A stretch of 32,000 nt of DNA from Sinorhizobium meliloti. GTDB lineage: Bacteria; Pseudomonadota; Alphaproteobacteria; Rhizobiales; Rhizobiaceae. Below, piece after piece: positions 3,767 through 23,828 of this stretch (positions within the stretch are counted from its first letter, which is position 1; each line of letters begins with the position of its first letter). The DNA is taken from the NCBI RefSeq assembly GCF_017876815.1, contig NZ_JAGIOS010000003.1, positions 990,001 through 1,022,000 on the forward strand. The letters run 5' to 3'. The position numbers and the translations under genes were made by a program. The notes under the pieces were generated by a model that saw only the letters and a list, made by a program, of their open reading frames with translations, did no database searches and was not told the origin of the DNA.

Positions 3767-3913
3767 GCGTTTAGGCACCCGCCGAGACGGGTGGCCCCAC
3801 CGGTGCCAAGAGCGGCGCCGCAACGCAAAAAGACCTGAAACAGCCACGGATGAGCCATGCACGGCGCATTCGGACGAAGCCCTGCGGGCTCATGAAATGA
3901 CATGAGGCACTAG

Positions 3914-9046: not shown

Positions 9047-9972
9047 TTACGCGTCCAGGGCCTCCGGCTGAGGATCGATCTCAGCGATTTTCTGAAACTC
9101 CCCAAGATATTCTTGGCGGTGATACGAAAGCCACCGGGTGATGCGAGTGTTGGCGAGCAGCTTGGCAACGTATCCGCGTGCGACGGTAAGATGCAGATTG
9201 TCGATGCCGTAAGTTTCCTCGACGCTTTTCACTTGAGTCTGAAGTGATGCAGTTCCCTTTCCATCCGGGCAATCTGCTGGCCTGTCGGCGTGGATGCAGC
9301 AGCGCCTGTCATCTTTTTGGCTGCGACCAACTGGCTGTCAGGCGTGGCAGCGCGTATCGCTCGCGCGAACATAAGCGTAAAATTGTGCTGACCGATCATC
9401 AAATCTGCCGCTTCGATTTGCCGAACGGCGTTCATCTGCCGCAGGACATCGAACACCTTCATCGAGCAGGGCGTGTCTTTCAGCATCTCGGCTACCTCGG
9501 GCTGATGCCTTCCAACAGACGGAACCGGCGAATGACGGACTCTGAAGCCCCAATGCATCGGCTATATCGGCCGAAGAAACGCCCCGCTCGATGGCACGAG
9601 CAATCATCCTGTGCTCCTGGATCGGGGCCAGCCGGTTGACCCGCTTGTTGTAGTGTAGGTGTCGTCGTCAATCGCAACCAAACACTCGACCTCCGCGAAG
9701 CCAAGTTCCTTCAGTGCTTCCAGCCGCAGGTGTCCATCGAGCAGGTACCAGGTTCCCGCGCTCCTTGTATCTGCAATGACCACCGGTGCCTCGACGAGTC
9801 CAATTGCCTTGATCGAGCTCAGGATCTGCGCAAACTTTCGGCTCTCGCGAGCGCCCTCCGGGAGTGACTTCAGGGGAACGATCGCAGAAATTGCGATGGT
9901 TTGTATGTCGCGGTCAAAAGCGAAGTGGATTCGCCCGTCCCCACCGTCGTCGCCTTTGCACTCTTCATTCAT
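9047..9972 (-). pseudogene. ParB N-terminal (ParB/Srx) domain protein with RepB-like C-terminal region, inactivated by at least 4 frameshifts
   Basis: Homology continues through four frame changes. The segments are:
- MNEECKG...LDGHLRLEALKELGFAEVECLVAIDDDTYT (frame of 9972);
- YNKRVNRLAPIQEHRMIARAIERGVSSADIADALG;
- SESVIRRFRLLEGISP;
- EVAEMLKDTPCSMKVFDVLRQMNAVRQIEAADLMIGQHNF...MERELHHF;
- VKSVEETYGIDNLHLTVARGYVAKLL...FQKIAEI.
The switches lie near 9652, 9550, 9500 and 9240. The shifts near 9652 and 9500 read as 1-nt deletions. Confidence 0.75.
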
Positions 9973-10150
9973 CGCATCTCCCGGAAATCCGTGTAGCGAG
10001 GGCTCTTGGCATAGTCTCAAGCCCCTCGGCTCGCAGCAAGTTGAGAAACCCTTCGTCAGCGAGCAGGTCCTTCAGGGCCTCGACGATGAACAGAAGGCGC
10101 GTCTGCGCACGTCCGCGATGTCCTTGCCACTCATATCCTAAAGCAAACCG
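9965..10150 (-). pseudogene. Probable C-terminal remnant of an upstream ParB-like paralogue (5'-truncated)
   Basis: Only the tail ...LLFIVEALKDLLADEGFLNLLRAEGLETMPRALATRI remains. It ends 8 nt inside the next gene, as in intact two-gene ParB-like modules. No N-terminal domain is present upstream. The family assignment is from memory and is weak. Confidence 0.3.
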
Positions 10151-10341: not shown

Positions 10342-10701
10342 ATGTCAGGACGGACTTTCAAAACGGCGTGGTTTTCCAAAGCAGCGAAGAAAGCGCGGAT
10401 CTCCGACAAGGCCCTTTGCAAGGCGATTGAGCAAGTCGCACGCGGACAGGCTGATGACCTCGGTGGCGGCGTGTTCAAGAAGCGGCTCAACGACAACATG
10501 CATCGTTCGATCGTTCTGGCGAAGGCCGGTGAGTACTGGGTGTTCGCCTATCTGTTCGCGAAGAAGGACCGCGCAAACATCGATGACGACGAGCTCCTGG
10601 CTTTCCGGAAGCTTGCCGAACTCTATCGGCGCAAGACACAGGCCGAGCTTGATGCGGACATCGGGACCGGCGCCCTATTGGAGATTTGCAATGGCGACTA
10701 A
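10342..10701 (+). CDS. Type II toxin, RelE/ParE superfamily (PF06296/COG4737-like)
   Basis: MSGRTFKTAWFSKAAKKARISDKALCKAIEQVARGQADDLGGGVFKKRL...WVFAYLFAKKDRANIDDDELLAFRKLA matches the toxin family that pairs with COG2944 HTH antitoxins. It overlaps the downstream gene by 11 nt. Confidence 0.8.
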   Translation: MSGRTFKTAWFSKAAKKARISDKALCKAIEQVARGQADDLGGGVFKKRLNDNMHRSIVLAKAGEYWVFAYLFAKKDRANIDDDELLAFRKLAELYRRKTQAELDADIGTGALLEICNGD

Positions 10702-11014
10702 GCGCAAGTTCAAGAGCGATGCCTTTGAGGCGATCCATAGCGCCGTCGAAGACATGTATTCGGCAGGTACCATCGACAAGGAAACCATGAAGACCTTCGA
10801 TGAGACTTGCCTTTCCATCCCGCAGGAGCTGACGCCAAGCGAGATCAAGGCGCTGCGCGAGAACAATCATGTCAGCCAACCAGTCTTCGCGCGCTACCTG
10901 AACACCAGTGCATCAACAGTGCAAAAGTGGGAAACCGGCGCGAAGCGGCCGAGCGGCCCCGCCTTGAAGCTGCTCTCGATCGTCCGGAAACACGGTCTCG
11001 AGATGTTGTCCTAG
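10691..11014 (+). CDS. HTH (Xre/COG2944, NadS/MqsA-like) antitoxin / DNA-binding regulator
   Basis: ATG at 10691 with GGAGA 6 nt upstream. Contains ...TPSEIKALRENNHVSQPVFARYLNTSASTVQKWETGAKRPSGPALKLLSIVRKHGLEML, an HTH plus the conserved C-terminal tail. The longer track ORF (10334..) is an out-of-context N-terminal extension through the toxin gene. Confidence 0.8.
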   Translation: MATKRKFKSDAFEAIHSAVEDMYSAGTIDKETMKTFDETCLSIPQELTPSEIKALRENNHVSQPVFARYLNTSASTVQKWETGAKRPSGPALKLLSIVRKHGLEMLS

Positions 11015-11204: not shown

Positions 11205-12731
11205 TTATGTTCTACGGCCGACATCAGGCGGCGTCCCGTGGTAGCGGTTCAGGCCGATATCCATCAGAGCCGCCCTATGATGGATCTCCGCCATGACAGG
11301 TTCGAAAATTCTGTTGCGGCGCTCGAGGTCAGCATGTTCGGCAAGATACGCCGGCACCAGCTCGGCAATCTCGTCGAAGATGGCCGGCTCATCCAACGCG
11401 GTCAACCGCCTGTCATGCATCACGATCCGACCGGCGACGATCACGGTCTCGATAGAGGAACCGTTCTCCGAATAGACCAAATGCTTAGCTAGATCGTTCA
11501 GTGGCATGAAGGGGTAGGTGCGCAAATCGAGAATCAGAAGATCTGCCGCCTTGCCGGCCTCAAGCGAGCCGGTCACCTGTTCCAGCAAGGCCGTCCTCGC
11601 ACCGCCGATCGTGGCCATCGCGAGAATCTCGTCCGCCGCAACCCATTTCGCATAGTCGGGCCCGGAAACGCTATGGATGAGGCCGGCAACACGCATAACA
11701 TCGAAGATGCGCGAGGTGTCGTTTGAAGAGACGCCGTCGGTGCCGAGGCCAATCGTCACTCCTGCATCGAGCAGGCGGCGGATCGGGGCGATGCCAGCGC
11801 CTAGCTTCATGTTCGATACGGCATTGTGGGCGACGGAGACACCCGCCTCCCCCATCAGGCACATGTCCTCATCGCTTACCCAGACTGAATGCGCGATGGT
11901 TGTGTTGCGCTTCAAAAGGCCAAGGTCGGCCATGTAAGCGATCAGCGACTTGCCGTGGAGCAAGTGGCCCGTCACGGCCTGGGTTTTGGTTTCCAAAATA
12001 TGCGTGTGGAACGGCACGTGATTTTCGATTGCAAGATCCATGCAAGCGGCCATGAGATCAGGCGAGCAACGCTGCGGCGCCGAGGGCGCAATCATGAAAT
12101 TCAGGCGGCCGGACTTGCCATGCAGGCTGGAGAAGGCCGACTTGCAGTAGTCCAGATACGCGGCGGCAGTCATGGGCGGGCCGAAATCGAGAAGGTCCTG
12201 CAATTGAGTGGGCATTACCTCGCGCGCGAAGGGCAGCGCTTCGAGCGTGTGGACGTTCATCACGGCACTCGACACATTGGCGCGGATGCCCGCATCGTCG
12301 TAGGCGCGGAACACCGTCGCCAGTCTGTCGAGATCGTGACGGGGCGGATCGAAGAAATCGTCACACAAGGTGGTGACGCCGTTACGCAACGACTCCATCG
12401 CCAGCAGCAGGCTGCGCAGGTAGAGCAGGCGTTCGCCGATCGGGTCGTTCATCAGCAGCGGATAGGCATAGAGCAGCCAGACTTCAAGCGGCATGCGATC
12501 ATAGCGGCCGCGAAGGAAGGTCTCGCTGGAATGGGTGTGGGCGTTCACGAGTCCAGGCATGACCAGCTTGCGGTGCCCCTCGATGATGCTCGCATCCGGC
12601 TTGGCGGCAAGCGCCGCGCCCATCGCCTTGATCTTTCCTCCATCAATCAGAATATCACCGGTAAACGGCGCTGTACCATGGGTAGCGTCCATAGCGACGA
12701 TCGTCGCATTGCGGATCAGGATTTCACTCAT
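11205..12731 (-). CDS. Amidohydrolase-superfamily deaminase/chlorohydrolase-type enzyme (COG0402-like: cytosine/guanine/MTA-deaminase, TrzA/SsnA relatives)
   Basis: Starts MSEILIRNATIVAMD...; metal motifs are PGLVNAHTHS, PFHTHILET, AHSVW and GLGTDG. The ATG at 12731 overlaps the upstream stop (ATGA). The 78-aa N-terminal extension in the track ORF overlaps the upstream gene and is spurious. Confidence 0.9.
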   Translation of the reverse strand: MSEILIRNATIVAMDATHGTAPFTGDILIDGGKIKAMGAALAAKPDASIIEGHRKLVMPGLVNAHTHSSETFLRGRYDRMPLEVWLLYAYPLLMNDPIGERLLYLRSLLLAMESLRNGVTTLCDDFFDPPRHDLDRLATVFRAYDDAGIRANVSSAVMNVHTLEALPFAREVMPTQLQDLLDFGPPMTAAAYLDYCKSAFSSLHGKSGRLNFMIAPSAPQRCSPDLMAACMDLAIENHVPFHTHILETKTQAVTGHLLHGKSLIAYMADLGLLKRNTTIAHSVWVSDEDMCLMGEAGVSVAHNAVSNMKLGAGIAPIRRLLDAGVTIGLGTDGVSSNDTSRIFDVMRVAGLIHSVSGPDYAKWVAADEILAMATIGGARTALLEQVTGSLEAGKAADLLILDLRTYPFMPLNDLAKHLVYSENGSSIETVIVAGRIVMHDRRLTALDEPAIFDEIAELVPAYLAEHADLERRNRIFEPVMAEIHHRAALMDIGLNRYHGTPPDVGRRT

Positions 12732-13666
12732 GGCAGGTTCCCCAAAGATTGAATGAGAAGGTCGTAGTAGGCGACGGGGTCGCCATCCCTGACATAGAAG
12801 ACATTCTTCGGACGGTCGGTGGTCTGCCACCAGTCGGCGACCGTCATCCCCGCTGTCAGCGTGCCGTTGAGCTCCACCGAGACATTGATCTGCCGGCCTG
12901 AAAACATGTCCGGCGCCAGCATGAAGGCGGGCACGCATGGCCCATGCAGCGGTGCGCCCTCCCAACCGTATTTGTTGAGGTCGAAGGCTTGGGAATATTC
13001 CAGCATTTCGGCGGTCGCCACGCCGCAGCGGTTTGCCAGAGCCCGCATTGCGCTGAGCCGCTCCGGCGTCGAGCGCATTCGGTGTGTCACGTCGAGTGGC
13101 AGGAGCGTGGTCTTGATGCCGGCCTTCAGCACGACGTCCGCGGCTTCGGGGTCAACATAGCAGTTGAATTCCGCCGCCGGCGTGATGTTGCCGACCTCGA
13201 AATAAGCTCCGAGCATCGCGACAACCTCATGAATCTTGCCGGCAATGTCGGGCGCCTTGCGTAAAGCCATGGCCAAATTGGTCACGGGGGACAGCGAGCA
13301 TATGGTGACCTCGCCGGGATGCGCGCAGACGGTGTCGATTATGAAATCGATGCCGTGCTTTTCCTGCGGCTTGATCGACGGCGGCGGCAGGTCCGGACCG
13401 TCGAGACCCGTCGGACCATGCACATGCTCGGCCGTGACCAGCGGACGGATGATCGGATGCGAGCAACCGGCGAAGACGGGAATATCCGGCCGGCCGGCCA
13501 GTTCCATCAGTTTCAGGCAGTTGGCGATGGTGTGATCGAGGTTGATGTTGCCGGCGGTGGCGACCAGTCCGAGAACCTCGAACGCTTGCTTCTGCCCGAG
13601 GATCGTCAGGATGGCAGCCGCCTGGTCCTGACCCGGATCGGTTAGGATGATCAGCTTGCGTGTCAT
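12728..13666 (-). CDS. Inosine-uridine-preferring-type nucleoside hydrolase family protein (atypical N-terminal Asp motif)
   Basis: MTRKLIILTDPGQDQAAAILTILG...GPTGLDG...ICSLSPVTNLAMAL...EFNCYVDPEAADVV shows the IUNH fold signature. The canonical DxDxxxDD reads LTDPGQDQ here. Confidence 0.85.
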   Translation of the reverse strand: MTRKLIILTDPGQDQAAAILTILGQKQAFEVLGLVATAGNINLDHTIANCLKLMELAGRPDIPVFAGCSHPIIRPLVTAEHVHGPTGLDGPDLPPPSIKPQEKHGIDFIIDTVCAHPGEVTICSLSPVTNLAMALRKAPDIAGKIHEVVAMLGAYFEVGNITPAAEFNCYVDPEAADVVLKAGIKTTLLPLDVTHRMRSTPERLSAMRALANRCGVATAEMLEYSQAFDLNKYGWEGAPLHGPCVPAFMLAPDMFSGRQINVSVELNGTLTAGMTVADWWQTTDRPKNVFYVRDGDPVAYYDLLIQSLGNLP

Positions 13667-14088
13667 GCGGCCACCCTGCCAGGAGCGCCGCCATCAAGCC
13701 ACGCGTAAAGCTCCCAGGTCTCGCCGTCAGGTCCGCGGAAATAGAGGCACCGGGCGTTCCACGGGTAGTCGGCCGGGGGATTGACGAAGGTCACGCCATC
13801 TTTTTCGAGGTCCGCATAGAGGACATCTATATCAGCGGGACTGTCGACTCGCACCGCCACGAGCACGGCCGATGCCGACCCTACGGGCACGCGCACATCA
13901 GTGTGGCTTTCGATATGCGACCGCTCCCACAGCGCGAGCGTCAGCCCCGCGCCGATGAAATCGGCAAAGCCTGGTGCGCGGTGCTTGAGTTCGAAGCCGA
14001 GCTTCTGCGTATAAAAGCGGATCGACGCCTCAACGTCGGTGACCAGGATGCAGACATCCTGGATCGGATGGAGTTGCGCGAACTTCAT
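13663..14088 (-). CDS. VOC (glyoxalase/bleomycin-resistance/dioxygenase) family protein
   Basis: 141 aa. Contains ...VCILVTDVEASIRFYTQKLGFEL...FRGPDGETWELY. There is an ATGA overlap with the nucleoside hydrolase gene. Confidence 0.8.
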   Translation of the reverse strand: MKFAQLHPIQDVCILVTDVEASIRFYTQKLGFELKHRAPGFADFIGAGLTLALWERSHIESHTDVRVPVGSASAVLVAVRVDSPADIDVLYADLEKDGVTFVNPPADYPWNARCLYFRGPDGETWELYAWLDGGAPGRVAA

Positions 14089-14097
14089 GGTGCCTCC

Positions 14098-14991
14098 CTA
14101 TTGATCCTTGAGTTCGGCGAACGAGCTGGCGGCCTTCGCGCCGCCGCGCAGCTTGCCGGAAAGCCAGACGCCGAAGACAGTCGCGAGATAGGGCAAAGCC
14201 TGCAGAAGGTCGTGCGGGATCTTGTCGCCGAACATCAATTGCGCCCGGATACCGAGCGCGCCAACGACGGCGAAGAACAGCGCAGCGAAAGTGGCCCCCA
14301 CCGGATGGGAAGCGCCGAAGATGACCGCAGCAAAGGCCATGAAGCCGCGACCCGCCGTCATGCCCTGGGCGAAGAACTGCAGGCTGCCGGCGGCAAGTTC
14401 CGCCCCGCCGATGGCACACAGCACCCCGCCGATCGCCAGCGCCACGAGGCGCATCCGCGAGGGATTGGCCCCGACGCTGCGGGCAGCGAAGGGATGCTCG
14501 CCACAGGCGGCGAGGCGGAGACCGAAGCGTGTGCGGCGGAGCATTACCCACATGCCGAAGACGACGAAAGGCATGGCGGCGACCGCGATCGACAGCACGC
14601 CATAGGCGCCGAAGGCCGGCCCGAGCTTCGGAATGCCGAACGGTGCGGTCACGCTCGCCTGGCTTCCGAAGATCGACTGAACGGCGAGCGCCGTGCCACC
14701 GAGGCCAAGGCCCGTCAGGCCGAGGCCGGCGATGATCGGATTGGCCTTGAGCCTGTCGATGACGAACCAGAGGAGGACGGAGGCAAGCACACAGATGAGG
14801 ATGGCGATGAGGATGGCCGCAACGATGGAGTTGGTCAGCATGATGCCGACGATCGTGGCGCAGGCACCCATGATCATCAGGCCCTCGAGACCGAGGTTCC
14901 ACACCCCTGCCCGCTGCGCAATGACGCCAGCGAGGGTGACGTAGATCAGCGGCGTCCCGGAACGCAGGATGGCGATGATGATCTCGTTCAT
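14098..14991 (-). CDS. BMP-family/nucleoside-type ABC transporter permease (YufQ/NupQ-like)
   Basis: Starts MNEIIIAILRSGTPLIYVTLAGVIAQRAGVWNLGLEGLMIMGA...; multi-span. The ATG at 14991 overlaps the upstream stop (ATGA). The track's 143-aa N-terminal extension is spurious. Confidence 0.9.
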   Translation of the reverse strand: MNEIIIAILRSGTPLIYVTLAGVIAQRAGVWNLGLEGLMIMGACATIVGIMLTNSIVAAILIAILICVLASVLLWFVIDRLKANPIIAGLGLTGLGLGGTALAVQSIFGSQASVTAPFGIPKLGPAFGAYGVLSIAVAAMPFVVFGMWVMLRRTRFGLRLAACGEHPFAARSVGANPSRMRLVALAIGGVLCAIGGAELAAGSLQFFAQGMTAGRGFMAFAAVIFGASHPVGATFAALFFAVVGALGIRAQLMFGDKIPHDLLQALPYLATVFGVWLSGKLRGGAKAASSFAELKDQ

Positions 14992-16025
14992 GACGGGCGT
15001 CCTCCGAGACGCAGCACTTGGTCGACGAGTTTCGACCTTGCTGTGATGAACAGCGCGATCGCCGCATTGATGATGTCGATCGCGGCGGCCGGCAGCCCGG
15101 CCATGATCGGCAGATAGAGCGCCGCCGAGGCAAGGCCGCCGAAAAACACCGCCGCCGCCGCAGTGCCGACCACGGAGAGATTGGCGACGAGTGCGATCAG
15201 GATTGCCGTGAAGCCGTGGGCCGGCAGGAACCCGGACGCAATGCGGCCGTTCGGCCCCATGAACTCGATAGTTCCGGCAAGACCCGCCAGTGCGCCCGAG
15301 ATGATGAAGCTCGACAGGCCGAGCTTCCACAGCCGCGCGCCCTGCCACTCCACCATCGTGCCGTTGCGGCCGGCAAGGCTTGCAAGAACCCCGAATGCCG
15401 TGCGGTTGACAAGGAGCCACATCAAAATGCCGACGGCGGCCCCGATGGCGATGGTGGTCGGGGATATGCCAAGCGAGTCCGAGATGCGGTAGGCCGCGTC
15501 GAGGGGGCGGCTCGATGCCTGCTGACCGGACCCCGAAGGATCCTTGAGCGGTCCCGAGGTCACATAGACCAGAAGCAGGCCGGCCATGAAGTTGCCCATC
15601 AGCGTGGTGATCACCTCGTCAGTGCCGGACCGTAGCCTTAGAAGTCCCGGCCAGAGAGCCCAGAGGGCGCCGCCCAGCGTACCGGCAATGATGAGTGCCG
15701 GGATGACGAGGAAAGCCGGCCCGCCCTTGAATGCCTCGGCGGCGAAGGCAGCGCAGATTGCGCCGACATAGAACTGGCCCTGTGCGCCGATGTTAAAGAA
15801 ACCCGCCCGGAAGGAAATCCCGACGCCTACGGCCGTGATGAACAGTGGCAATGCCCATCTGAGGCTCTGTTCAATCGCACCGCTGCGCAGGAAGGCGCCG
15901 TCGGCCACCGCCCAGAGCATGACCGGCGCATTGTAGCCGGCAAACTGGAACACCAGCGCGCACAGGATGAGCGCAAAGGCGACAAAGATCAGGCTGCGGG
16001 CAACCGTGACGAGACTGTCTTTCAT
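14988..16025 (-). CDS. BMP-family/nucleoside-type ABC transporter permease (YufP/NupP-like)
   Basis: 345 aa, multi-span. Contains ...GFFNIGAQGQFYVGAICAA.... There is an ATGA overlap with the ATPase gene stop at 16022-16025. Confidence 0.9.
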   Translation of the reverse strand: MKDSLVTVARSLIFVAFALILCALVFQFAGYNAPVMLWAVADGAFLRSGAIEQSLRWALPLFITAVGVGISFRAGFFNIGAQGQFYVGAICAAFAAEAFKGGPAFLVIPALIIAGTLGGALWALWPGLLRLRSGTDEVITTLMGNFMAGLLLVYVTSGPLKDPSGSGQQASSRPLDAAYRISDSLGISPTTIAIGAAVGILMWLLVNRTAFGVLASLAGRNGTMVEWQGARLWKLGLSSFIISGALAGLAGTIEFMGPNGRIASGFLPAHGFTAILIALVANLSVVGTAAAAVFFGGLASAALYLPIMAGLPAAAIDIINAAIALFITARSKLVDQVLRLGGRPS

Positions 16026-17602
16026 GCGCTTACCCTCGCAGCCGCATCGGTCATGGCTGCGCCCACCGACGCGATATCGAAGGGCGCGTGGAATTCACCG
16101 TTCACACGTCCCGACAGCATCACCACCACACGGTCGGAGATGTCGAACAGCTCGTCGAGATCAGACGAAATCAAAAGGATGGCGGCGCCGCGATCGCGTG
16201 CCTGCCGGAGCGCCTGCCACACGAAGGCGGTGGCACCGATGTCGAGACCACGCGTCGGCTGAGCCGCGATGATCAGCCTGGCATCGCGATCGACCTCGCG
16301 CGCAAGGATCACCTTCTGGGCATTACCGCCCGACAAGGACCCCGCCTTCTGAGCTGAATTGTGGTAGTGAACGCTCCATTCCCTAAGCGACCGGTCGCAG
16401 GCTTCGCGCACCGCCGAGGGGCGGATCACCTTGAGCAGGCTCCCCTGCAGCAACTCCCTTGCGCTCCAGTTCTGCCAGAGCGAACTCGTGAGGCTGAGAC
16501 CTTCGACGTTGCGCTCGAAGGGAATGATCCTGAGCCCAATCGCGCGACGGGCGGCGAGCGGTTTGCCGGTCACGTCATGGCCTGCAAGCACGATCGATCC
16601 GCCGGCAAGATCGGCAAGGGCGGAAATGGCGCGCACCAGCGTCTTTTGTCCGTTGCCCTCCACGCCTGCTATACCAACGATCTCGCCTGGGCGAATGTCC
16701 AAATCGACGCCATCGAGTGTGATGCCCTCACTGTCGGGCCGCGTGGAGACGGCCTTCAAGGATAGCACGCTCGGACCTTTTGCATTTTTTGGATGACCTG
16801 CGCCCTCGCCTGAGGGCGGTTTCGTTCCGACCAGCGCGTCGCGCTCATGCCGATCAAGAGTCTTGGCAGCCGCTTCACCGACGATCAGGTTGGCGAGCCT
16901 CTCGGCCGAAACCTCGGCTATCGGAAGCGGCCCCTCGACCTTTCGGCCGCCGCGCAACACCGTTACCGTGTCAGCGATGCCGAGCACCTCACGGATCTTG
17001 TGCAGGATCAGGATGACGGTAACGCCACGTTCCCTGAGGCGGCGGACACGAGCAAACAGCATGTTTATGCCGGAGGGCGAGAGCACCGCGGTCGGCTCGT
17101 CGAGGATGAGCACGCGCGCATCCATCACGAGCGCCCTTGCGATCTCGATGCCCTGTTGGGTCTCGATCGGCAGGTCGCGGATCCGCCGGTTTAGGTCAAC
17201 TTGGACGTCGAGGTCGGCGATATGCCCCCGCCATCTTTTGGCGAGCCCCTTGCGGCTGTAAATACCACCTTTGCCAGTGGCGCCGAACTCCATGATTTCC
17301 GCGACCGTGAAGGATGGCGGCAGGGCGAAACTCTGATGAACCAGCTCCACACCCGCCGTTCGGCTCACGCTGACCTGGCCGGTGCGAATTTCGTGGCCCA
17401 TCACGTCGACGGCACCGGCAGTCGGTTGAACGAGCCCCGCAGCGACGCGGGCGAAGGTTGTCTTGCCGGCGCCGTTCTGGCCCACGACCGCGTGGATCTG
17501 GCCGGGAACAAACGAAACGGCAACGCCCGACAGTGCAGTCACGTCTCCGAATTTCACGGTGACATCCCGGCACTCCAGCGCAGGCTTCAGAAGGTTGCAC
17601 AT
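16022..17602 (-). CDS. ABC transporter ATP-binding protein with two fused nucleotide-binding domains
   Basis: First NBD: GQNGAGKTT ... LILDEPTAVL. Second NBD: GVEGNGQKT ... LSGGNAQKVILARE ... IAAQPTRGLD. The start is uncertain between 17602 (MCNLLKP...) and 17632. Confidence 0.9.
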   Translation of the reverse strand: MCNLLKPALECRDVTVKFGDVTALSGVAVSFVPGQIHAVVGQNGAGKTTFARVAAGLVQPTAGAVDVMGHEIRTGQVSVSRTAGVELVHQSFALPPSFTVAEIMEFGATGKGGIYSRKGLAKRWRGHIADLDVQVDLNRRIRDLPIETQQGIEIARALVMDARVLILDEPTAVLSPSGINMLFARVRRLRERGVTVILILHKIREVLGIADTVTVLRGGRKVEGPLPIAEVSAERLANLIVGEAAAKTLDRHERDALVGTKPPSGEGAGHPKNAKGPSVLSLKAVSTRPDSEGITLDGVDLDIRPGEIVGIAGVEGNGQKTLVRAISALADLAGGSIVLAGHDVTGKPLAARRAIGLRIIPFERNVEGLSLTSSLWQNWSARELLQGSLLKVIRPSAVREACDRSLREWSVHYHNSAQKAGSLSGGNAQKVILAREVDRDARLIIAAQPTRGLDIGATAFVWQALRQARDRGAAILLISSDLDELFDISDRVVVMLSGRVNGEFHAPFDIASVGAAMTDAAARVSA

Positions 17603-17672
17603 CAAAAGTTCCCATCGAGAGCGAAGGCTCACGGACCGTCAACAGGAAGGAAGACGATCCGCGAACGTCCGG

Positions 17673-17697
17673 CGGCCCTCCCCGAAGGCAAAGGCCG
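17673..17697 (-). other. Intercistronic stem-loop between the SBP and ATPase genes
   Basis: On the minus sense, CGGCCTTTGCC-TTCG-GGGAGGGCCG forms a stem of about 10 bp (one mismatch, G-U pairs) closed by a UUCG tetraloop. It lies in the 149-nt gap after the SBP stop. Confidence 0.3.
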
Positions 17698-17751
17698 ATA
17701 CCGGTTTTCCGTCAAGGCTCCGGGGGCCGACCCTGCGGCCGGCGCCGGAGC

Positions 17752-18804
17752 TCAGAGCGTGGTGTTGAACGGAACCTTGATGGAGCCATCAAGAATACCG
17801 GCACGCGCCTTTTCGACCTCGACCAGCGCTTCCTTCGCCCTGGCGTTCAGCTCAGGCGGCCCCTGTTCGGCGAAGACGGGCGAGGGAATGAAGTCGATGA
17901 CGCCGGTCCCAAGGCCCGTATGCTCGTGCGTGCCGCCCTTCCATTCAGGACCGACGGCCTTCGTTGCCTCGTTGTAGAGCGAGACGCCGAAATCGAGGCC
18001 GACGATGGAGATGAGCGACTTCGGACCGAGTGCGTACTGTCCTGGCGCAAGACAGCTCACCATGCGGCCTTCCTTTTCGTTGGCTGCGGCGATAATGCCG
18101 CCGTCGGTGGCGGCTGCGTCCGTCTGAATGTAGTCGATGCCGTCATTGTACATCTGGGCGGCGATTTCCTGGCCCTTTGCAGGATCCTGGAACGAGCCGG
18201 CAAAGGCGGCGATGACGCTGGCGTCCGGCTTGATCGAGTGGACGCCGGCTTTGAATGCGTTGAAATCGGCGTTGAGCGGCGGGATCGAAACACCTCCGAT
18301 GAAGCCGGTCTTGCCCGTCGTTGTCATCTTGGCCGCAAAGACGCCAGAGAGATAGCAGCCGAGATAGTAGTCGTAGGACACCGTCACCACGTTCGGGATC
18401 GCCGGCTCGAAGGGGTCGGCGAACAGCTGGATCCATTTGGTACCGGGATAGGACGGCGCCAGCGCCTTGAAGGGCTCGGCCACTTCGTTGAAGGTGGAGA
18501 TGATGATCGCAGCACCTGCGTCACCGAGCGTGCGGTAGATGGTCTCGTAGGTCGCGGGGTCCTGCGCGTAGATGGCACGGTGCTCAAACCCCTTCTCTTC
18601 CGACAGCTGCTTGAGCTTGGCGATCATCTGATCGACCGGGCCGTTGTCGCCGGCGGCCTGCGTGTGGACCAGTGCGACCAGCCCACCGGACGCCCTGGCA
18701 AATTCGGGCACAATGCTGGCGGCAAGACCGAGCGCAGCGGCGCCCGCGCTCGCCTGTAGGAATGTGCGACGGTGCATTATGTGTTGTGAAGCCTTGTCAG
18801 TCAT
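17752..18804 (-). CDS. BMP-family (PnrA/Med-like, nucleoside-type) ABC transporter substrate-binding protein with Tat signal
   Basis: MTDKASQHIMHRRTFLQASAGAAALGLAASIVPEFARA carries the twin-arginine motif. The BMP-type body follows (...GFIGGVSIPPLNADFNAFKAGV...). AGAGGGA lies 6 nt upstream of the ATG at 18804. Confidence 0.9.
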   Translation of the reverse strand: MTDKASQHIMHRRTFLQASAGAAALGLAASIVPEFARASGGLVALVHTQAAGDNGPVDQMIAKLKQLSEEKGFEHRAIYAQDPATYETIYRTLGDAGAAIIISTFNEVAEPFKALAPSYPGTKWIQLFADPFEPAIPNVVTVSYDYYLGCYLSGVFAAKMTTTGKTGFIGGVSIPPLNADFNAFKAGVHSIKPDASVIAAFAGSFQDPAKGQEIAAQMYNDGIDYIQTDAAATDGGIIAAANEKEGRMVSCLAPGQYALGPKSLISIVGLDFGVSLYNEATKAVGPEWKGGTHEHTGLGTGVIDFIPSPVFAEQGPPELNARAKEALVEVEKARAGILDGSIKVPFNTTL

Positions 18805-18883
18805 GATCGTTCCCTCTTTTGTTAATTGTCTTGTGTCATGCGCATTCCGACACGCGGGCAATGGCGACACGTGCCTGGTCGTC

Positions 18884-19204
18884 TCAAAGCGGCGGCGAAT
18901 AGGATGCAGGGTTCATGATCATCACCTCCTGCTTCTGGATCGCATCGAGCGCCCAGACCTCGGAGATGAATTTTTTCCAATCCGGATCGGCGTACATGGC
19001 CGAGCGGCGCGCCTCGCGATCCGCAAGGCTGTCGTAGGCCCACAGGAGAACGGTGGTGTGAAGCGTGCCGAGCTCCGAAACGTAGAGGCCGACGAATTTG
19101 TTGAGATGACGTTTCTGCACCGGGAGACCGTCAGCCTCGTATTTCTTCATCCACTTGTCGACCGTGCCGGGCTTGAACGTATAGGTGCGGTGTTCGAGGA
19201 TCAT
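18884..19204 (-). CDS. NIPSNAP family protein
   Basis: 106 aa. MILEHRTYTFKPGTVDKWMKKYEADGLPVQKRHL...LHTTVLLWAYDSLADREARRSAMYADPDW is typical of NIPSNAP. An AAGGGAG RBS is present. Confidence 0.8.
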   Translation of the reverse strand: MILEHRTYTFKPGTVDKWMKKYEADGLPVQKRHLNKFVGLYVSELGTLHTTVLLWAYDSLADREARRSAMYADPDWKKFISEVWALDAIQKQEVMIMNPASYSPPL

Positions 19205-19216
19205 CGGATCACTCCC

Positions 19217-20842
19217 TTAGCTGTTCAGGATCAATTCGGCGCATTTCTCGCCGATCATGATGGCGGGCGCGTTGGTGTTGCCGCTCGAGATGATCGGCAT
19301 GATCGAGGCGTCGGCGACACGCAGACCCGCGATGCCATGGACCTTGAGCTGCGCATCCACCACCGCCATGGGATCGTTACCCATCTTGGCGGTGCCAACA
19401 GGGTGGAACGTCGTCATGGCCGTGGCCCGTAGCCAGCGGGTCAACCCAGCGTCGTCGTTTGCTTCCGGCCCGGGCGCCAGCTCCTTGCCGCGATAGCGGT
19501 CGAAAGCCCTCTGGCCGACGATGTCGCGCGTCAGCCGGATGCCGTCAATCATCGTGCGGACGTCAAAATCGGACTGGAGGTAGTTCGCCTGGATCTTCGG
19601 TTTGTCGGTGGGGTTCGCCGACCGTAGCGTGATCTCGCCGCGGCTCGCCGGATTGACGGGTCCGACCCGGATAGTGAAGCCGTGATCTGCCTCGACCGCC
19701 CGCTTCTTGGCGAAGGGATTGGGGAAATGCAGGTTGGCGGTCTTTTCCAGCGCCGGCATGAAATGCAGCTGGATGTCGGGCGAGACGAGGCCGTCGTTCG
19801 AGCGAATGAAGGCACCCGCCTCGTAGGGAAACGTCGTTGTGATACCCTCGCCGAACAGCATCCCTTGCGCGACAGCAGGAATGAGCTTGTCGGCGCGCAG
19901 GTCGCCGAACAGCGTGACCGGCTCGCGGCATTCCCAGCTCATGACGCAGTCGACGTGATCCTGGAGGTTCTTGCCGACACCGGGAAGATCGAGCGTCGGC
20001 TTGATGCCGAGGGCACTCAGTTCGTCTGCCGGCCCGATGCCGGAAAGCAACAGCGCCTTGGGCGAGTTGACCACGCCGGCGGACAGGATGACTTCGCGAC
20101 CTGCACGCGCGAGGCCGGGCCTGCCGTCCTTCAAATATTCGACACCGCAGGCCCGGCCGCCCTCGATGAGGACACGCGTCGTTTCAGCGCCCGTCAGTAC
20201 GGTAAGGTTCTTTCGGCCGAGCGCCGGGCGCAGGAAGGCCCAGGATGTGGACCAGCGCTTGCCCTTGCGGATGGTAAAATCGTATCGGCCAAACCCTTCC
20301 TGGGTCACACCGTTGAAGTCGTCGTTCTGAGGATAGCCGGCCTGCAGTCCTGCCTCGCAGAACACGTCCATCAACGGATTGTGGCCACGGGCACGGCAGA
20401 CAGTGAGCTCGCCGTCCACATTGTGAAATTCCCCATTGCGCTGGATATGCGCTTCCGAGCGGCGAAATGCCGGCAGGACTTCGTCATAGGACCAGCCGGG
20501 CAGGCCGAGCTGCGCCCAGCGGTCGTAGTCGTGGCGATTGCCACGCACGTAGATCATGCCGTTGATCGTGGAGGTTCCGCCCAGCACCTTGCCGCGCGGC
20601 CAGTAGAGGGACCGGCCGTTGAGATAGGGCTCGGGTTCCGTGTGATAGTGCCAGTTGTAGATGCCCGAATGGAAAAGCTTGCCCATTAGCATTGGCAACC
20701 GAAAGAGCGGATTTTGGTCCTTGCAGCCAGCCTCGATGAGCAACACGCGGTTCGCAGGGTCCATCGACAGACGGTTCGCGAGAACGCAGCCGGCCGAACC
20801 CGCGCCGACGATGATGAAATCATATTCCGGGGTAGACGCCAT
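19217..20842 (-). CDS. GMC-family FAD-dependent oxidoreductase (choline-dehydrogenase-like)
   Basis: YDFIIVGAGSAGCVLANRLS...RVLLIEAG is the FAD GxGxxG motif. Contains GKVLGGTSTINGMIYVRG and the C-terminal ...HPVGTAKMG...VVDAQLKVHGIAGLRVADASIMP. Confidence 0.9.
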   Translation of the reverse strand: MASTPEYDFIIVGAGSAGCVLANRLSMDPANRVLLIEAGCKDQNPLFRLPMLMGKLFHSGIYNWHYHTEPEPYLNGRSLYWPRGKVLGGTSTINGMIYVRGNRHDYDRWAQLGLPGWSYDEVLPAFRRSEAHIQRNGEFHNVDGELTVCRARGHNPLMDVFCEAGLQAGYPQNDDFNGVTQEGFGRYDFTIRKGKRWSTSWAFLRPALGRKNLTVLTGAETTRVLIEGGRACGVEYLKDGRPGLARAGREVILSAGVVNSPKALLLSGIGPADELSALGIKPTLDLPGVGKNLQDHVDCVMSWECREPVTLFGDLRADKLIPAVAQGMLFGEGITTTFPYEAGAFIRSNDGLVSPDIQLHFMPALEKTANLHFPNPFAKKRAVEADHGFTIRVGPVNPASRGEITLRSANPTDKPKIQANYLQSDFDVRTMIDGIRLTRDIVGQRAFDRYRGKELAPGPEANDDAGLTRWLRATAMTTFHPVGTAKMGNDPMAVVDAQLKVHGIAGLRVADASIMPIISSGNTNAPAIMIGEKCAELILNS

Positions 20843-20845
20843 GGT

Positions 20846-21697
20846 TCACCATGCGATGGGCCGGCCGCCCATCGCCTCCAGATAGGAATTGCAGAGAAGG
20901 AAAGGATTTTCCCGGCCGAGCACCTTGTCGGCGAAGGCGGGATGCTCGCGCTGGACATAGCCGACATGGCCCGCATGCCCCTCGCGAATGCTTGCTTCCG
21001 CAAGAATGTCCGCAGCCGCCGCGCCGAATCCGAGGAACACGACCGGCTCACCCCGCGCCACCAGCATATCGATCACACGCAGCATCAAGGGTCGCCAGAA
21101 AGGAAGGTGCCCGCGCGACTGATGCGGATCGATATCGACCCGGAAGCGCGAGAGCGTCAGCGACGCGTTGAGCAGCAGCACGCCCTCGCCCACCCAGCGG
21201 CCGGCAATCACTCCGGGTGCCTCGAACGGGCCGGCGGGGTCGCACAAGAGACGTCGCACGTCGGGCCAGCGGTCGAAGCTTTGCGCCAGACTCTCATCGC
21301 CGAGACGCGCGGCCGCAATGAGCTGCATATAGGCACGGATGCTCTTGGAGAACATCTTGTCCAGCTCGTTCCACGCGGCCAGGTTGCCGGCCTCGAAGGC
21401 GCGACCTGTTGCCAGACCCGGTTCCGGATAGGGATCCTGGCCAAGGATCATGCAATGGACGCCGTTCGGCGCGATGCCGTCGAAGGCGGCGAGGACATGG
21501 GCACCCCGGGGCTGGCCGGGAAAGGTCTTGCCGCGGCGTGCGGGAAATATCGGCTCCCAGGCCTCCAGATCGAGCCCGGCATCGATGCGGTCGAAATCCT
21601 CTTCGACGGGTCCGAGCGCATCCCGCCAGGCATGCGGCAGGTCGGCTTGCCAGCCGGCGAGCGTTTCTGCCATCGCCTCTCTCAGTCGTGCCGGCAT
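20846..21697 (-). CDS. Uracil-DNA glycosylase superfamily protein, family-1 (UNG)-like, first gene of the operon
   Basis: 283 aa from the ATG at 21697 (GGGGAG upstream). Contains ...PIFPARR...AFDGIAPNGVHCMILGQDPYPEPGLATGRAFE...GVLLLNASLTL...REHPAFAD. By eye these align with the UNG motifs GQDPYH, HGLxFS, LLLNxxLTV and HPSPLS. The track's 146-aa N-terminal extension crosses the AT-rich intergenic region and is spurious. Confidence 0.75.
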   Translation of the reverse strand: MPARLREAMAETLAGWQADLPHAWRDALGPVEEDFDRIDAGLDLEAWEPIFPARRGKTFPGQPRGAHVLAAFDGIAPNGVHCMILGQDPYPEPGLATGRAFEAGNLAAWNELDKMFSKSIRAYMQLIAAARLGDESLAQSFDRWPDVRRLLCDPAGPFEAPGVIAGRWVGEGVLLLNASLTLSRFRVDIDPHQSRGHLPFWRPLMLRVIDMLVARGEPVVFLGFGAAAADILAEASIREGHAGHVGYVQREHPAFADKVLGRENPFLLCNSYLEAMGGRPIAW

Positions 21698-21740
21698 CAC
21701 GCCGCTCCCCTGCGTTCGTTGAAATGAGACTAGACAAAAG

Positions 21741-21811
21741 CTGACCAAAGTGTCAACTTTTAAAAGGAAAAAAATGACGAATGGGTCAGTTTTTTTTGAC
21801 CAGATCGTCGG
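21741..21811. promoter_or_regulatory. Three RutR-box-like imperfect palindromes in the divergent promoter region
   Basis: CTGACCAAAGTGTCAA (21741-21756), ATGACGAATGGGTCAG (21774-21789) and TTGACCAGATCGTCGG (21796-21811) resemble the E. coli RutR consensus TTGACCAnnTGGTCAA. They lie in the AT-rich 231-bp gap between the divergent starts at 21697 and 21929. Confidence 0.4.
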
Positions 21812-21928
21812 TTTTTTGAATAGTGGCGCGCTTGCATTTCGCCGTAAAACGCGGCAATTGCGGAAACGACCTCGCCGCCACGCATGATTGCCTGGTAGGA
21901 AGCGGCGACGTGAGAGGGACGAGATCGC

Positions 21929-22570
21929 ATGGCAACGGCAGCACGGGATCCAGAGGAGCGCATCCGCGAACGCAACATGCGCCTCATCATCAAAACTGGG
22001 ATCGAGATATTCGCGCGCAAGGGCTTTGATGGTACGCGGATCGCCGAGATCGCCGAGGCCTCGGGCCTGCCCAAGGCCAACGTCTATTACTATTTCTCTT
22101 CTAAGGAGGAGATCTACAGGGCCATCATTGCGCACCTCATTACCAGCTGGGACGAGGCGCTAAAATATATTTCGCCCGAGCGTGAGCCGGCGGAGGCCTT
22201 CCGGCTCTACATCAAGGCAAAGCTCGACTACACGCGCAAGAACATCGCCGAGTCCCGGCTCTTCGCCAGTGAGATCATTCAGGGAGCGCGGTTCCTGAAG
22301 AAGAAGGATCGCGACCATATGCGCCAGGTCACGGATGCGCATGTGGCGGTCGTGGAGGGTTGGATTGCGGCCGGAAAGTTGCTGCCGGTTGATCCGCGCC
22401 ACCTGTTCATCATGCTGTGGGCTTCAACGCAGTTTTACGCGGATTTTGAGCCCATCGCCGCCGACGGGCTAAGGAAGGCGCGTTTGAAAGCGGAGGATTA
22501 TGAAGCAGCCGCAACGACAATTACGGAGACGATCCTGAAAGGCATTCTACCCGGCCCGGTGCACAGTTGA
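21929..22570 (+). CDS. TetR-family transcriptional regulator, RutR-like
   Basis: N-terminal HTH: FARKGFDGTRIAEIAEASGLPKANVYYYFSSKEEIY. C-terminal ...GWIAAGKLLPVDPRHLFIMLWASTQFYADFEP closely resembles the RutR ligand-domain segment, by eye and from memory. Confidence 0.8.
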   Translation: MATAARDPEERIRERNMRLIIKTGIEIFARKGFDGTRIAEIAEASGLPKANVYYYFSSKEEIYRAIIAHLITSWDEALKYISPEREPAEAFRLYIKAKLDYTRKNIAESRLFASEIIQGARFLKKKDRDHMRQVTDAHVAVVEGWIAAGKLLPVDPRHLFIMLWASTQFYADFEPIAADGLRKARLKAEDYEAAATTITETILKGILPGPVHS

Positions 22571-22921
22571 ATCGATGCCGGACAGAGTCGCCTCTTGGGA
22601 CCCTCTGGCCGAACGCGCCTACCGACGTGATGGACTTGATGGACTTGATGCGATTCGATCGGCCCTTCTCTTCATTCACCCCCGTCTTTCGAGAAGCGCG
22701 AATTAGCCTTGAGGAAACGGTGGGACGAAACGTTGTTGGTGGATCGCAAGGGCGGTCGACCGGGACGGGCATCGGGGTGCTTGACGACAAACGGCAAGAG
22801 TCCATCCGCAAGACCATCATCAGATACTACCTAAAGTGTAATCGACCGACACTTTCGCTGTGTTGGTCCGGGATGTGCAAACGAACTGCATGTCGGCCGG
22901 GCTTAACGCCCCCGTCCAATT

Positions 22922-22937
22922 GATACCTTATGCGATC
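22922..22937 (+). repeat. 16-bp recurring motif, copy C (GATACCTTATGCGATC)
   Basis: 15/16 identical to copies A and B. It lies at the outer boundary of the IS110-family remnant's 3' non-coding region. Confidence 0.6.
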
Positions 22938-23556
22938 TTCTGTAACGGGCTTTGCGTCAATCCCTTGTGCGCTTAATCCGTCGCCGAGGGCTTGCTTCTG
23001 TCCGCAGTCGGAGCTTTGCCGCTGCTCTATGGTGTCTGCTGAGGACCGGTTGGCCAATCTTAGAAGCGCAGTCACCGCGTGCTGCTGATCGCATAGCGGC
23101 CTAACCCATCCATCGTCCCGGCGAAGGGACCTTGCTGCGGAGGGCTGATGGCTGTGCCCGTCCGAAAGCCTGTCTCGTCGTCTCCTCCGATCAAGCCGCC
23201 AGGGCTGGCGCTCCCTTATGAGCAATGAAGTTCTATCCCTGAGTATGCAATGCAACACCACCGCCAGCTTGCGGGCCAGCGCCACGCGCGCCTTTTTGGG
23301 GCCGGCACGTCTTGCGACCGCCAACGCCCAACCCTTCAGATCGGAGCCTTTGACCGGTCGCGTCAGGATTGACATTGGCCGCCTCGTAGAGCGCGGTTCG
23401 CACGCTGCCATCGCCGATCTTCGAGATGCGACCGCTATGATCGGTCTCGCCCGACTGACACTTCTTCGGCGTCAATCCGAAGTGCGGCCCCACCGCGCGC
23501 GAGGAGCGGAATCGCTCCGGCGCATCGACGGCCGCCACAAACGTCAGCGCCACCAG
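22938..23556 (-). pseudogene. IS110-family transposase remnant: C-terminal half only, frameshifted, plus about 280 nt of 3' non-coding DNA
   Basis: LVALTFVAAVDAPERFRSSRAVGPHFGLTPKKCQSGETDHSGRISKIGDGSVRTALYEAANV continues after a frameshift near 23375 as ILTRPVKGSDLKGWALAVARRAGPKKARVALARKLAVVLHCIL. This is the conserved IS110 C-terminal domain. The N-terminal DEDD domain is absent. Confidence 0.7.
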
Positions 23557-23557
23557 G

Positions 23558-23698
23558 AGCAACGGCCAGGGGGAAGGCGAAATCAACCGCCTGAAGGCAA
23601 TCAAGCGTGCAATCTATGGCAGAGCTGGCCCGGAGCTGCTCAGGGCACGCGTGCTGCCGCTTGACCAAAATCGCCACCACACAAAGTGAGGAAGACCC
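23558..23698 (+). pseudogene. ISL3-family element 3' end (last ~43 codons of the transposase plus terminal repeat)
   Basis: SNGQGEGEINRLKAIKRAIYGRAGPELLRARVLPLDQNRHHTK* matches the conserved ISL3 C-terminus (SNGxxEGxINRLKxxKRxxYG). It is followed by GAGGAAGACCC, which resembles ISL3 ends (GGxTCTTCC in reverse complement). It abuts the IS110 fragment at about 23557. Confidence 0.5.
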
Positions 23699-23828
23699 CA
23701 TTTATCTGCCAAGCGACAGGTCAGCAGGCAGAGGAGCCGCTTGGTGATGATTAGAAGGGATGGGGGGTGGATGACGATGGGGGGCGGCAGCAGCAGCCCG
23801 GCCCTAAAAAACGGCGCGCGGCGCTCCG

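Follow-up and report, generated by a model that had tools for sequence, protein, structure and literature searches.

A RutR-type-controlled operon with a BMP importer and a UNG-like protein on the Sinorhizobium meliloti megaplasmid pSymA as a probable pyrimidine-nucleoside utilisation route

A ten-gene operon and its recurrence across species

The window analysed here is a 32,000-nucleotide (nt) stretch of accessory DNA from the pSymA megaplasmid of Sinorhizobium meliloti (contig NZ_JAGIOS010000003.1, positions 990,001 to 1,022,000), and within it lies an operon of ten consecutive minus-strand genes, running from 21697 down to 11205, with a TetR-type regulator gene transcribed divergently from it (Table 1). 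In that direction the genes encode a protein resembling family-1 uracil-DNA glycosylase (UNG), a GMC flavin oxidoreductase, a NIPSNAP protein, a substrate-binding protein (SBP) of the BMP/PnrA family, an ABC ATPase, two permeases, a VOC protein, an IUNH-fold protein and a COG0402-type amidohydrolase. We read it as a pyrimidine utilisation operon under RutR-type control and with a BMP importer, in which the invariant enzymes have no precedent for such a role, and as probably an uncharacterised pyrimidine-nucleoside route. The genes are tightly packed, with ATGA start/stop overlaps (TCAT on the plus strand) at 12728-12731, 13663-13666, 14988-14991 and 16022-16025 and gaps of 3, 12, 79, 149 and 9 nt at the remaining junctions, read from 21697 towards 11205. 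These coordinates exactly reproduce those of an initial annotation made from the sequence alone, and its family assignments agree with our profile searches on every protein.

Table 1 Features of the operon region and its flanks, with positions in the window and, for genes searched across related loci, the number of loci with a copy.
Feature	Position	Strand	Profile match or character	Loci (of 82)
COG0402-type amidohydrolase, 508 amino acids (aa)	11205-12731	-	Amidohydro_1, 183 bits	67
IUNH-fold protein, non-canonical, accessory	12728-13666	-	IU_nuc_hydro (PF01156), 296 bits (Pfam cut-off 34)	31
VOC (glyoxalase/bleomycin-resistance fold) protein, accessory	13663-14088	-	Glyoxalase, 68 bits	28
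ABC permease 2	14098-14991	-	BPD_transp_2	80
ABC permease 1	14988-16025	-	BPD_transp_2	81
ABC ATPase, two nucleotide-binding domains	16022-17602	-	two ABC_tran stretches	81
Structured 149-nt spacer, SBP-ATPase	17603-17751	-	three G+C-rich hairpins
BMP/PnrA-family periplasmic SBP, twin-arginine-like leader	17752-18804	-	Bmp, 128 bits	80
NIPSNAP protein, 106 aa	18884-19204	-	PF07978, 102 bits	81
GMC flavin oxidoreductase, 541 aa	19217-20842	-	GMC_oxred_N + GMC_oxred_C	82
UNG-like protein, 283 aa	20846-21697	-	NCBIfam ung, E 5e-19	82
Divergent promoter/operator region	21698-21928		231 nt between two start codons
RutR-type box 1, CTGACCAAAGTGTCAA	21741-21756		TGAC-N6-GTCA palindrome
RutR-type box 2, ATGACGAATGGGTCAG	21774-21789		TGAC-N6-GTCA palindrome
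RutR-type box 3, TTGACCAGATCGTCGG	21796-21811		overlaps -35-like hexamer for TetR gene
RutR-paralogue TetR repressor, 213 aa	21929-22570	+	TetR_N (PF00440) + TetR_C_3 (PF08362, YcdC-like), E 4.6e-38	79 (divergent)
IS30-family transposase	about 7945-8946		beyond operon 3' end
Two RepB/ParB partition-protein fragments	about 9339-9973		beyond operon 3' end
RelE/ParE toxin + helix-turn-helix antitoxin pair	about 10342-11014		beyond operon 3' end
Stretch of about 1.25 kb between TetR gene and next gene	22571-23828		no called gene
FMN-dependent alpha-hydroxy-acid oxidase gene	23829-24974		right of TetR gene

We scanned one genome per species across about 185,000 species genomes, which gave relatives of the UNG-like protein in 277 species, and compared the 80 closest genome loci together with two plasmid loci by searching these 82 loci with all eleven window proteins. 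The gene set and its order recur in about 80 species, contrary to the lack of co-conservation that would have refuted the initial annotation: order was constant throughout the 82 loci, with the TetR gene divergent and gaps of a few nucleotides. Of the single co-conserved unit that the initial annotation had envisaged, the eight core genes stood (79-82 of the 82 loci, the missing copies lying mostly at contig ends), whereas the IUNH-like, VOC and amidohydrolase genes proved to come and go (Table 1). The core is thus the divergent TetR gene, the UNG-like, GMC and NIPSNAP genes and the BMP-type ABC importer; it includes NIPSNAP, which had been left out of the set of genes proposed for a conservation test, and the genes that had been supposed to be established salvage functions form its variable periphery. 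Hosts belong mostly to the Hyphomicrobiales, together with Paracoccaceae (Rhizobiaceae, Phyllobacteriaceae, Brucellaceae, Devosia, Labrys, Roseiarcus and Paracoccaceae). Clustering of the flanking open reading frames (ORFs) across 80 loci gave no conserved neighbour, the most frequent family being a generic ABC ATPase found in 19 loci. Because no neighbour is conserved beyond it, the cluster behaves as a self-contained cassette, and the downstream steps are therefore not readable from context.

Residue patterns in the core and accessory proteins

The UNG-like protein reached 68.9 bits against the NCBIfam ung model (TIGR00628), whose cut-off is 185.75, and gave no Pfam match at E<=0.01; its sequence matches in the PDB were UNG chains only. 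Its AlphaFold model (predicted local distance difference test score, pLDDT, 83; predicted template modelling score, pTM, 0.86) was compared by Foldseek, and among the matches listed all were family-1 UNG, with template modelling scores of 0.43-0.64. We then aligned it with the UNG of E. coli and of humans and with its own relatives, some as little as 30% identical. Residues D88, Y90, F101, N177 and H252 align with UNG D64, Y66, F77, N123 and H187 and are invariant or nearly so, the Asp and the His being catalytic in UNG; the GQDPYP motif, which in UNG forms the water-activating loop, at residues 86-91 is invariant in 42 orthologues and nearly invariant in 35 distant relatives. The uracil-recognition pair is kept, the stacking F101 and N177 of the LLLN strand corresponding to E. 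coli F77 and N123, as are H252-P253, the LLLN motif and S119, and the serine of the Pro-rich loop, which contacts a phosphate in UNG, is likewise invariant or nearly so.

Other features of UNG are absent from the family. UNG S166, S189, L191 and S192 have no conserved counterpart, nor is the serine of the Gly-Ser motif conserved. Of the HPSPLS Leu-intercalation loop, in which SPLS supplies two phosphate-pinching serines and the inserting leucine, His-Pro alone is kept, SPLS being AFAD here and variable in relatives. Conversely, the family carries about 45 conserved N-terminal residues and an internal insertion of about 27 residues beyond UNG, together with new invariant residues (R99, E102, H197 and W201). 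By sequence and model alike the protein is a genuine homologue of family-1 UNG, and on this evidence it would work as a uracil N-glycosidase and fall outside the DNA glycosylases.

The TetR protein has RutR as its best NCBIfam match (TIGR03613, 172.4 bits against a cut-off of 368; PRK15008, 143.9 against 230) and is 36% identical to E. coli RutR in pairwise alignment. In RutR, uracil is stacked between W77 and W167, K101 contacts O4 and Q171 contacts N3 and O2, while Leu78 abuts C5 with its side chain, excluding thymine, and Gln179 from the partner subunit reads N1-H and O2 (PMC4325133). Comparing the contact set L74, W77, L78, K101, W167, Q171 and Q179, we found W77, W167, K101 and Q171 kept in all orthologues and Ile or Leu at the L74 position, whereas the Leu78 position is Asp in 80/80 readable orthologues and Gln179 is without counterpart. 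The RutR likeness noted earlier holds for the best profile match and the architecture, but judged by these residues the regulator is a RutR paralogue, not RutR. From this pocket we infer an effector that keeps the 2,4-dioxo pyrimidine ring but is unlike uracil at N1 and/or C5, as would be true of a 5-substituted uracil or of a uracil nucleoside. Cytosine, with Asp78 reading its 4-amino group, was considered as an effector and rejected, since the O4-contacting Lys is kept in all orthologues.

The divergent arrangement, the AT-rich spacer and its three palindromes were borne out as initially annotated. The spacer core (21720-21830) has 38% G+C against 63% in the operon. Sites matching TGAC-N6-GTCA with at most one mismatch occur two to three times per spacer in 77/77 loci with a readable spacer, at conserved spacing, and their density there (10.6/kb) is about 23-fold that elsewhere in the same loci (0.46/kb).

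The GMC protein is a full-length two-domain enzyme with the FAD motif GAGSAG, and no signal peptide was seen. It scored 659 bits against the choline-dehydrogenase-like model PRK02106 (cut-off 605) and 581.6 bits against the BetA equivalog TIGR01810 (cut-off 732.1), and its neighbourhood holds no betI, betB or betT and no other betaine or choline gene context. Its nearest solved structures are choline dehydrogenase (9lq0) and chloramphenicol oxidase (CmO, 8b7s), followed by alcohol oxidases, pyridoxine 4-oxidase (4ha6) and hydroxymethylfurfural (HMF) oxidase (4udp/6f97); the nearest of these relatives oxidise primary alcohols. NIPSNAP is the best-conserved protein of the cluster, with a median identity of 80% across loci, and its PDB relatives are structural-genomics entries only, without annotation. 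The NIPSNAP paralogues that we viewed, on other plasmids (L176, L177 and L178; 34-45% identical), sit in other catabolic clusters. Those of L176 and L178 adjoin an aldehyde or semialdehyde dehydrogenase gene, which in L177 lies about 6 kb away, and L176 (R. etli pRetIE4803d) also holds a Rut-like set of luciferase-type monooxygenase, flavin reductase and alpha/beta hydrolase. This gives a weak hint that NIPSNAP deals with an aldehyde product.

For the importer, the leader of the SBP matched TAT_signal at 18.9 bits, below the Pfam cut-off, and the nearest solved structures are BmpA (9q1u), the lipoproteins 6y9u/6ya3, TmpC, BmpD and the atrazine-binding protein 6pi5. All four transporter proteins have 'putative B6 ABC transporter' models as their best NCBIfam matches (ATPase 372 bits against a cut-off of 670; SBP 42 against 400). 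An identity as a vitamin B6 transporter was rejected on these scores, which lie far below the cut-offs. The 149-nt spacer between the SBP and ATPase genes has a minimum free energy of -77.5 kcal/mol (z = -3.25) and no T-run, and an Rfam search with it gave no match. Its probable role is that of a stabiliser or attenuator between the cistrons, by which expression of the SBP would be uncoupled from that of the transporter; a dispersed repeat was also considered and is ruled out by its single copy per replicon.

The amidohydrolase carries NAHTH, HTHILE, AHS and GTD, which we take to be the metal and catalytic motifs (HxH, HxxE, H and D) that typify COG0402 deaminases. NCBIfam ranks chlorohydrolase and deaminase families highest for it, but each misses its cut-off by a wide margin (307 against 609 in one case), and its nearest solved structures are methylthioadenosine/S-adenosylhomocysteine deaminase, AtzA, TrzN and 8-oxoguanine deaminase, of none of which it is an orthologue; the contexts of its paralogues offer weak hints at most. 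A ring deaminase is the probable assignment. The IUNH-fold protein had been counted as an established nucleoside hydrolase in the initial annotation, a claim that did not survive inspection. It is closest to RihA (276 bits against an equivalog cut-off of 433), but it reads LTDPGQDQA and HGP in place of RihA DCDPGHDDA and HDP, and does so in 30/31 loci, down to 70% identity; the sole canonical copy, in Roseiarcus (L056), lies away from the operon. In IUNH hydrolases the DXDXXXDD fingerprint and the Asp of HD(P) belong to the Ca2+/ribose site, and two of the replaced Asp residues are Ca2+ ligands there. Because the RihA motifs are replaced this consistently, the protein is not countable as an established ribonucleoside hydrolase; by its motifs it is a fixed, selected variant, which suggests an altered metal and sugar site and a non-ribose substrate.

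Contexts of relatives and the replicon

An exhaustive search returned 206 clusters (50%-identity representatives) of UNG-like relatives at E<=1e-10. The locus L084 keeps the order TetR_C_3 / UNG-like - GMC - NIPSNAP, at 45%, 63% and 61% identity for the last three. The stretch read there holds neither a BMP transporter nor a nucleoside enzyme; genes for a TonB receptor, an NCS1 permease and a dihydropyrimidinase (597 bits, cut-off 393) stand about 5 kb from this trio. In its TetR protein (3302-3919) the positions of RutR Leu74 and Leu78 are occupied by Arg and Val, and Gln-Gln is kept at the site of Gln179, unlike the ABC-linked clade, which has Asp78 and lacks this Gln; the pocket of the regulator may covary with the type of transporter, on one lineage only. 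In L170 the UNG-like gene (product 46% identical) overlaps the stop codon of a cytidine deaminase gene, and in L079 a thymidine phosphorylase gene (519 bits against a cut-off of 269) follows VOC at the usual IUNH-like position. An ORF of L070 looks similar to this thymidine phosphorylase gene. The pyrimidine-nucleoside theme of the initial annotation gains from these contexts, in which relatives of the UNG-like protein adjoin thymidine phosphorylase or cytidine deaminase, or have a dihydropyrimidinase/NCS1 cluster nearby.

More distant relatives, 34-39% identical to the window protein, are preceded directly by an Amidohydro_1 gene. This gene encodes 551 aa in L174 (Variovorax sp. RA8 plasmid 2; 7329-9861; UNG-like 38% identical), where a cytochrome-P460-like gene and one for an S41 peptidase come before the pair; 692 aa in L083 (5870-8845); and a contig-cut fragment of at least 257 aa in L088 (1-1651). 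The pairing of amidohydrolase and UNG-like genes may predate the association with GMC and NIPSNAP. In L171 the UNG-like gene is followed by a hemerythrin/HAD protein, a Gluconate_2-dh3 and GMC dehydrogenase pair and, further on, a long amidohydrolase. UNG-like relatives thus recur with three kinds of partner: deaminases or amidohydrolases, GMC dehydrogenases, and pyrimidine enzymes. L089, L175 and others gave uninformative or non-metabolic contexts, some of these relatives standing alone or near nuclease or integrase genes, and several distant relatives lie on contigs too short to show context. A metagenome scan with a back-translated distant UNG-like pattern proved too generic, returning mostly ordinary UNG genes and L089 as the only true relative. 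Separately, in L087 (153-2677) the gene directly upstream of the UNG-like gene, and overlapping it, encodes 549 aa that match the UDG superfamily weakly (E 0.002); the two products may be a tandem pair of UDG-fold proteins.

Within S. meliloti the 11.4-kb operon region is strain-variable. Strain SM11 carries it at 100% identity, 31 S. meliloti pSymA-type records match it at 97% or more, and SM11, Rm41 and BL225C are positive; three Ensifer replicons match it at about 82-89% identity, and the pSymA of strain 1021 gave no match. The transposase, RepB/ParB and toxin-antitoxin neighbours, together with this missing match, mark the region as mobile accessory DNA. To the right of the operon lie unrelated dehydrogenase and ABC genes. 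In the stretch without a called gene, a Pfam search of the longest ORF (194 aa, minus strand, 22827-23411) gave nothing; the stretch may hold a pseudogene, a kind of feature absent from the plasmid gene table.

A candidate route, its rivals and known systems

From the gene content, synteny, operators and residue patterns above we infer the substrate and every catalytic step of the following scheme. The RutR-paralogue repressor would occupy the TGAC-N6-GTCA operators, two or three in number, that lie between the divergent promoters. A compound with a uracil ring and a substituent at N1 and/or C5 would release it, a uracil nucleoside being the simplest case; import of this compound would fall to the BMP binding protein with its Tat leader and to the ABC transporter. 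The COG0402 amidohydrolase would convert a cytosine-type (4-amino) form to the uracil form, and the UNG-like protein would hydrolyse the N-glycosidic bond of the free uracil nucleoside, releasing uracil. The GMC flavoenzyme, always encoded by the next gene, would oxidise a primary alcohol to an aldehyde or acid on which NIPSNAP would act, and the IUNH-like variant, VOC and, in some species, thymidine phosphorylase might widen or complete the route. That the operon is a horizontally mobile, self-contained utilisation system for a pyrimidine nucleoside, with a UNG-fold enzyme cleaving a free uracil nucleoside, is a reading that we judge evenly balanced between right and wrong. Somewhat less assured is the fuller proposal that the family-1 UNG fold was recruited from DNA repair to serve as an N-glycosidase of a free uracil nucleoside, perhaps 2'-deoxy or 5'-oxidised, forming with GMC, NIPSNAP and a RutR paralogue retuned from uracil to nucleoside an unrecognised catabolic module. 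As to the oxidised alcohol, a place on the sugar side, either as the 5'-CH2OH of a 2'-deoxy or otherwise non-ribo nucleoside or on the released sugar, is possible and still rather doubtful; we lean that way because of the GQDPY Tyr, which in UNG sterically excludes 5-substituted uracils, the altered IUNH-like sugar site, the lost N1 contact and the sugar-type dehydrogenase of L171.

Several observations weigh against cleavage of a free nucleoside. We know of no UDG-fold enzyme acting on a free nucleoside, and the AlphaFold model is weakest in the active-site loops themselves (residues 91-104 and 181-186, pLDDT <50). Since the phosphate-contacting serine of the Pro-rich loop is retained, the substrate could instead be a nucleotide or oligonucleotide. 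BMP binding proteins can bind free bases too, and the L084 trio has a nucleobase-type NCS1 permease nearby, so the substrate could be a base and the UNG-like protein not a glycosidase. The role given to NIPSNAP is drawn solely from its neighbourhood, and distant relatives such as L089 sit in non-metabolic contexts.

Oxidation might instead fall on the base, the first example given in the initial annotation. Here the substrate would be a 5-hydroxymethyl pyrimidine such as 5-hydroxymethyl-(deoxy)cytidine or -uridine, or else the free bases: the amidohydrolase would remove the 4-amino group, GMC would oxidise the 5-CH2OH to formyl or carboxyl, NIPSNAP or another protein would remove the one-carbon unit, and the UNG-like protein would cleave once plain uracil had been restored. 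This scheme has the attraction that the three main enzymes would each handle one functional group of one molecule; the C5-facing Asp of the regulator could hydrogen-bond a polar C5 substituent, and solved GMC relatives (pyridoxine 4-oxidase and HMF oxidase) act on heteroaromatic hydroxymethyl groups. However, because the GQDPY Tyr is kept, a 5-substituted substrate fits poorly unless the substituent is removed first, and among the operon proteins there is no iso-orotate-decarboxylase-type (Amidohydro_2) or other recognisable decarboxylase. The lost N1-contacting Gln points to an N1 substituent instead of or besides one at C5, and full-text searches gave no literature link. We consider base-side oxidation unlikely.

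A free-base oxidative route is more improbable still. In it the UNG-like protein would bind uracil and direct an Asp-activated water to the ring (for example, C6 hydration), GMC would oxidise the resulting carbinol towards barbiturate, and later steps would be encoded elsewhere. GMC enzymes do oxidise hydrated aldehydes and hemiaminal-like carbinols, the stretch read in L084 places the trio near an NCS1 permease and a dihydropyrimidinase and shows no nucleoside enzyme, and the IUNH-fold gene is confined to a minority of loci, L079 having thymidine phosphorylase. Against this, the route is purely chemical speculation, with no barbiturase or ureidomalonase among the operon proteins; the cytidine deaminase (L170), thymidine phosphorylase and IUNH-fold partners fit glycoside cleavage better, and the regulator lacks the contact to the N1-H that a free base would offer.

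We give hardly any credence to two further alternatives. The substrate could be another hydroxymethyl N-heterocycle, such as vitamin B6, the thiamine pyrimidine hydroxymethylpyrimidine (HMP) or a triazine-like compound, as the B6-transporter models, the GMC membership of pyridoxine 4-oxidase and the resemblance of the amidohydrolase to AtzA and TrzN and of the SBP to an atrazine-binding BMP protein might suggest; but the transporter scores fall far short, the regulator keeps every RutR contact to uracil O4, N3 and O2, the UNG-like protein keeps the uracil-specific Asn, Phe and His, and the accessory and neighbouring genes are all pyrimidine-nucleoside enzymes. Nor does the UNG-like gene look like an ordinary DNA-repair uracil-DNA glycosylase riding ahead of an unrelated operon, for instance to guard DNA when uracil or dUTP pools rise: databases do label it so, all family-1 UNG catalytic and uracil-recognition residues are present, and the L175 and L089 contexts would suit, but its ung score is low, the SPLS loop and Gly-Ser serine are not conserved, the extension and insertion are foreign to UNG, and the gene lies 3 nt upstream of GMC, similarly tightly in about 80 species, as the first gene under a RutR-type operator.

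If cleavage of a free uracil nucleoside is right, the operon would hold the first UDG-superfamily enzyme acting on a free metabolite instead of DNA and the first biochemical role for a bacterial NIPSNAP protein, would add one more route to the short list of pyrimidine utilisation pathways, and would present a natural retuning of RutR specificity at two positions, those facing uracil C5 and N1. It may bear on the harvest of nucleic-acid breakdown products by rhizosphere and marine Alphaproteobacteria, and as a compact, strain-variable system in S. meliloti it is experimentally tractable.

Finally, we compared the operon with known systems. Its lack of fit to the known pyrimidine routes, noted in the initial annotation, was upheld: full-text literature searches gave no paper on this gene set and no characterised pathway with it. 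Profile searches of the ten operon proteins gave no RutA/RutB, dihydropyrimidine dehydrogenase, dihydropyrimidinase, beta-ureidopropionase, barbiturase or URC enzymes. The Rut, reductive Pyd, oxidative barbiturate and URC routes consume uracil, the presumable end product of the operon, and a dihydropyrimidinase lies near the trio in L084. The bacterial pyrimidine-nucleoside sets (BMP/PnrA importers, RihA/RihB, cytidine deaminase and thymidine phosphorylase) come closer, sharing with the operon the BMP SBP, two-domain ATPase and two permeases, the RihA-like IUNH fold, a deaminase-type amidohydrolase and, in L079, thymidine phosphorylase, but differing in the invariant enzymes, here UNG-like, GMC and NIPSNAP, and in the IUNH fold, here without the canonical acidic residues. 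The GMC protein has the architecture common to the primary-alcohol oxidases and dehydrogenases BetA, CmO, HMF oxidase and pyridoxine 4-oxidase, and differs from BetA in its sub-equivalog score and in standing outside a bet gene context.

E. coli RutR resembles the regulator in two-domain architecture and divergent arrangement, and the operators share the TGAC-N6-GTCA core of the TTGACCAnnTGGTCAA box; the regulator departs from RutR in its equivalog score, in the Leu78 to Asp exchange and in the absence of Gln179. E. coli RutR controls rutABCDEFG and carAB, whereas the equivalent pSymA stretch has no rut gene among its annotated genes and the cluster no RutA-G. With family-1 UNG, finally, the UNG-like protein shares the fold, the GQDPY loop, the stacking Phe, the LLLN Asn, His-Pro and a C-terminal PIxW, and a solved actinobacterial UNG (9tu4) also carries GQDPYP; unlike UNG, it scores below the curated cut-off and is encoded within a catabolic operon.

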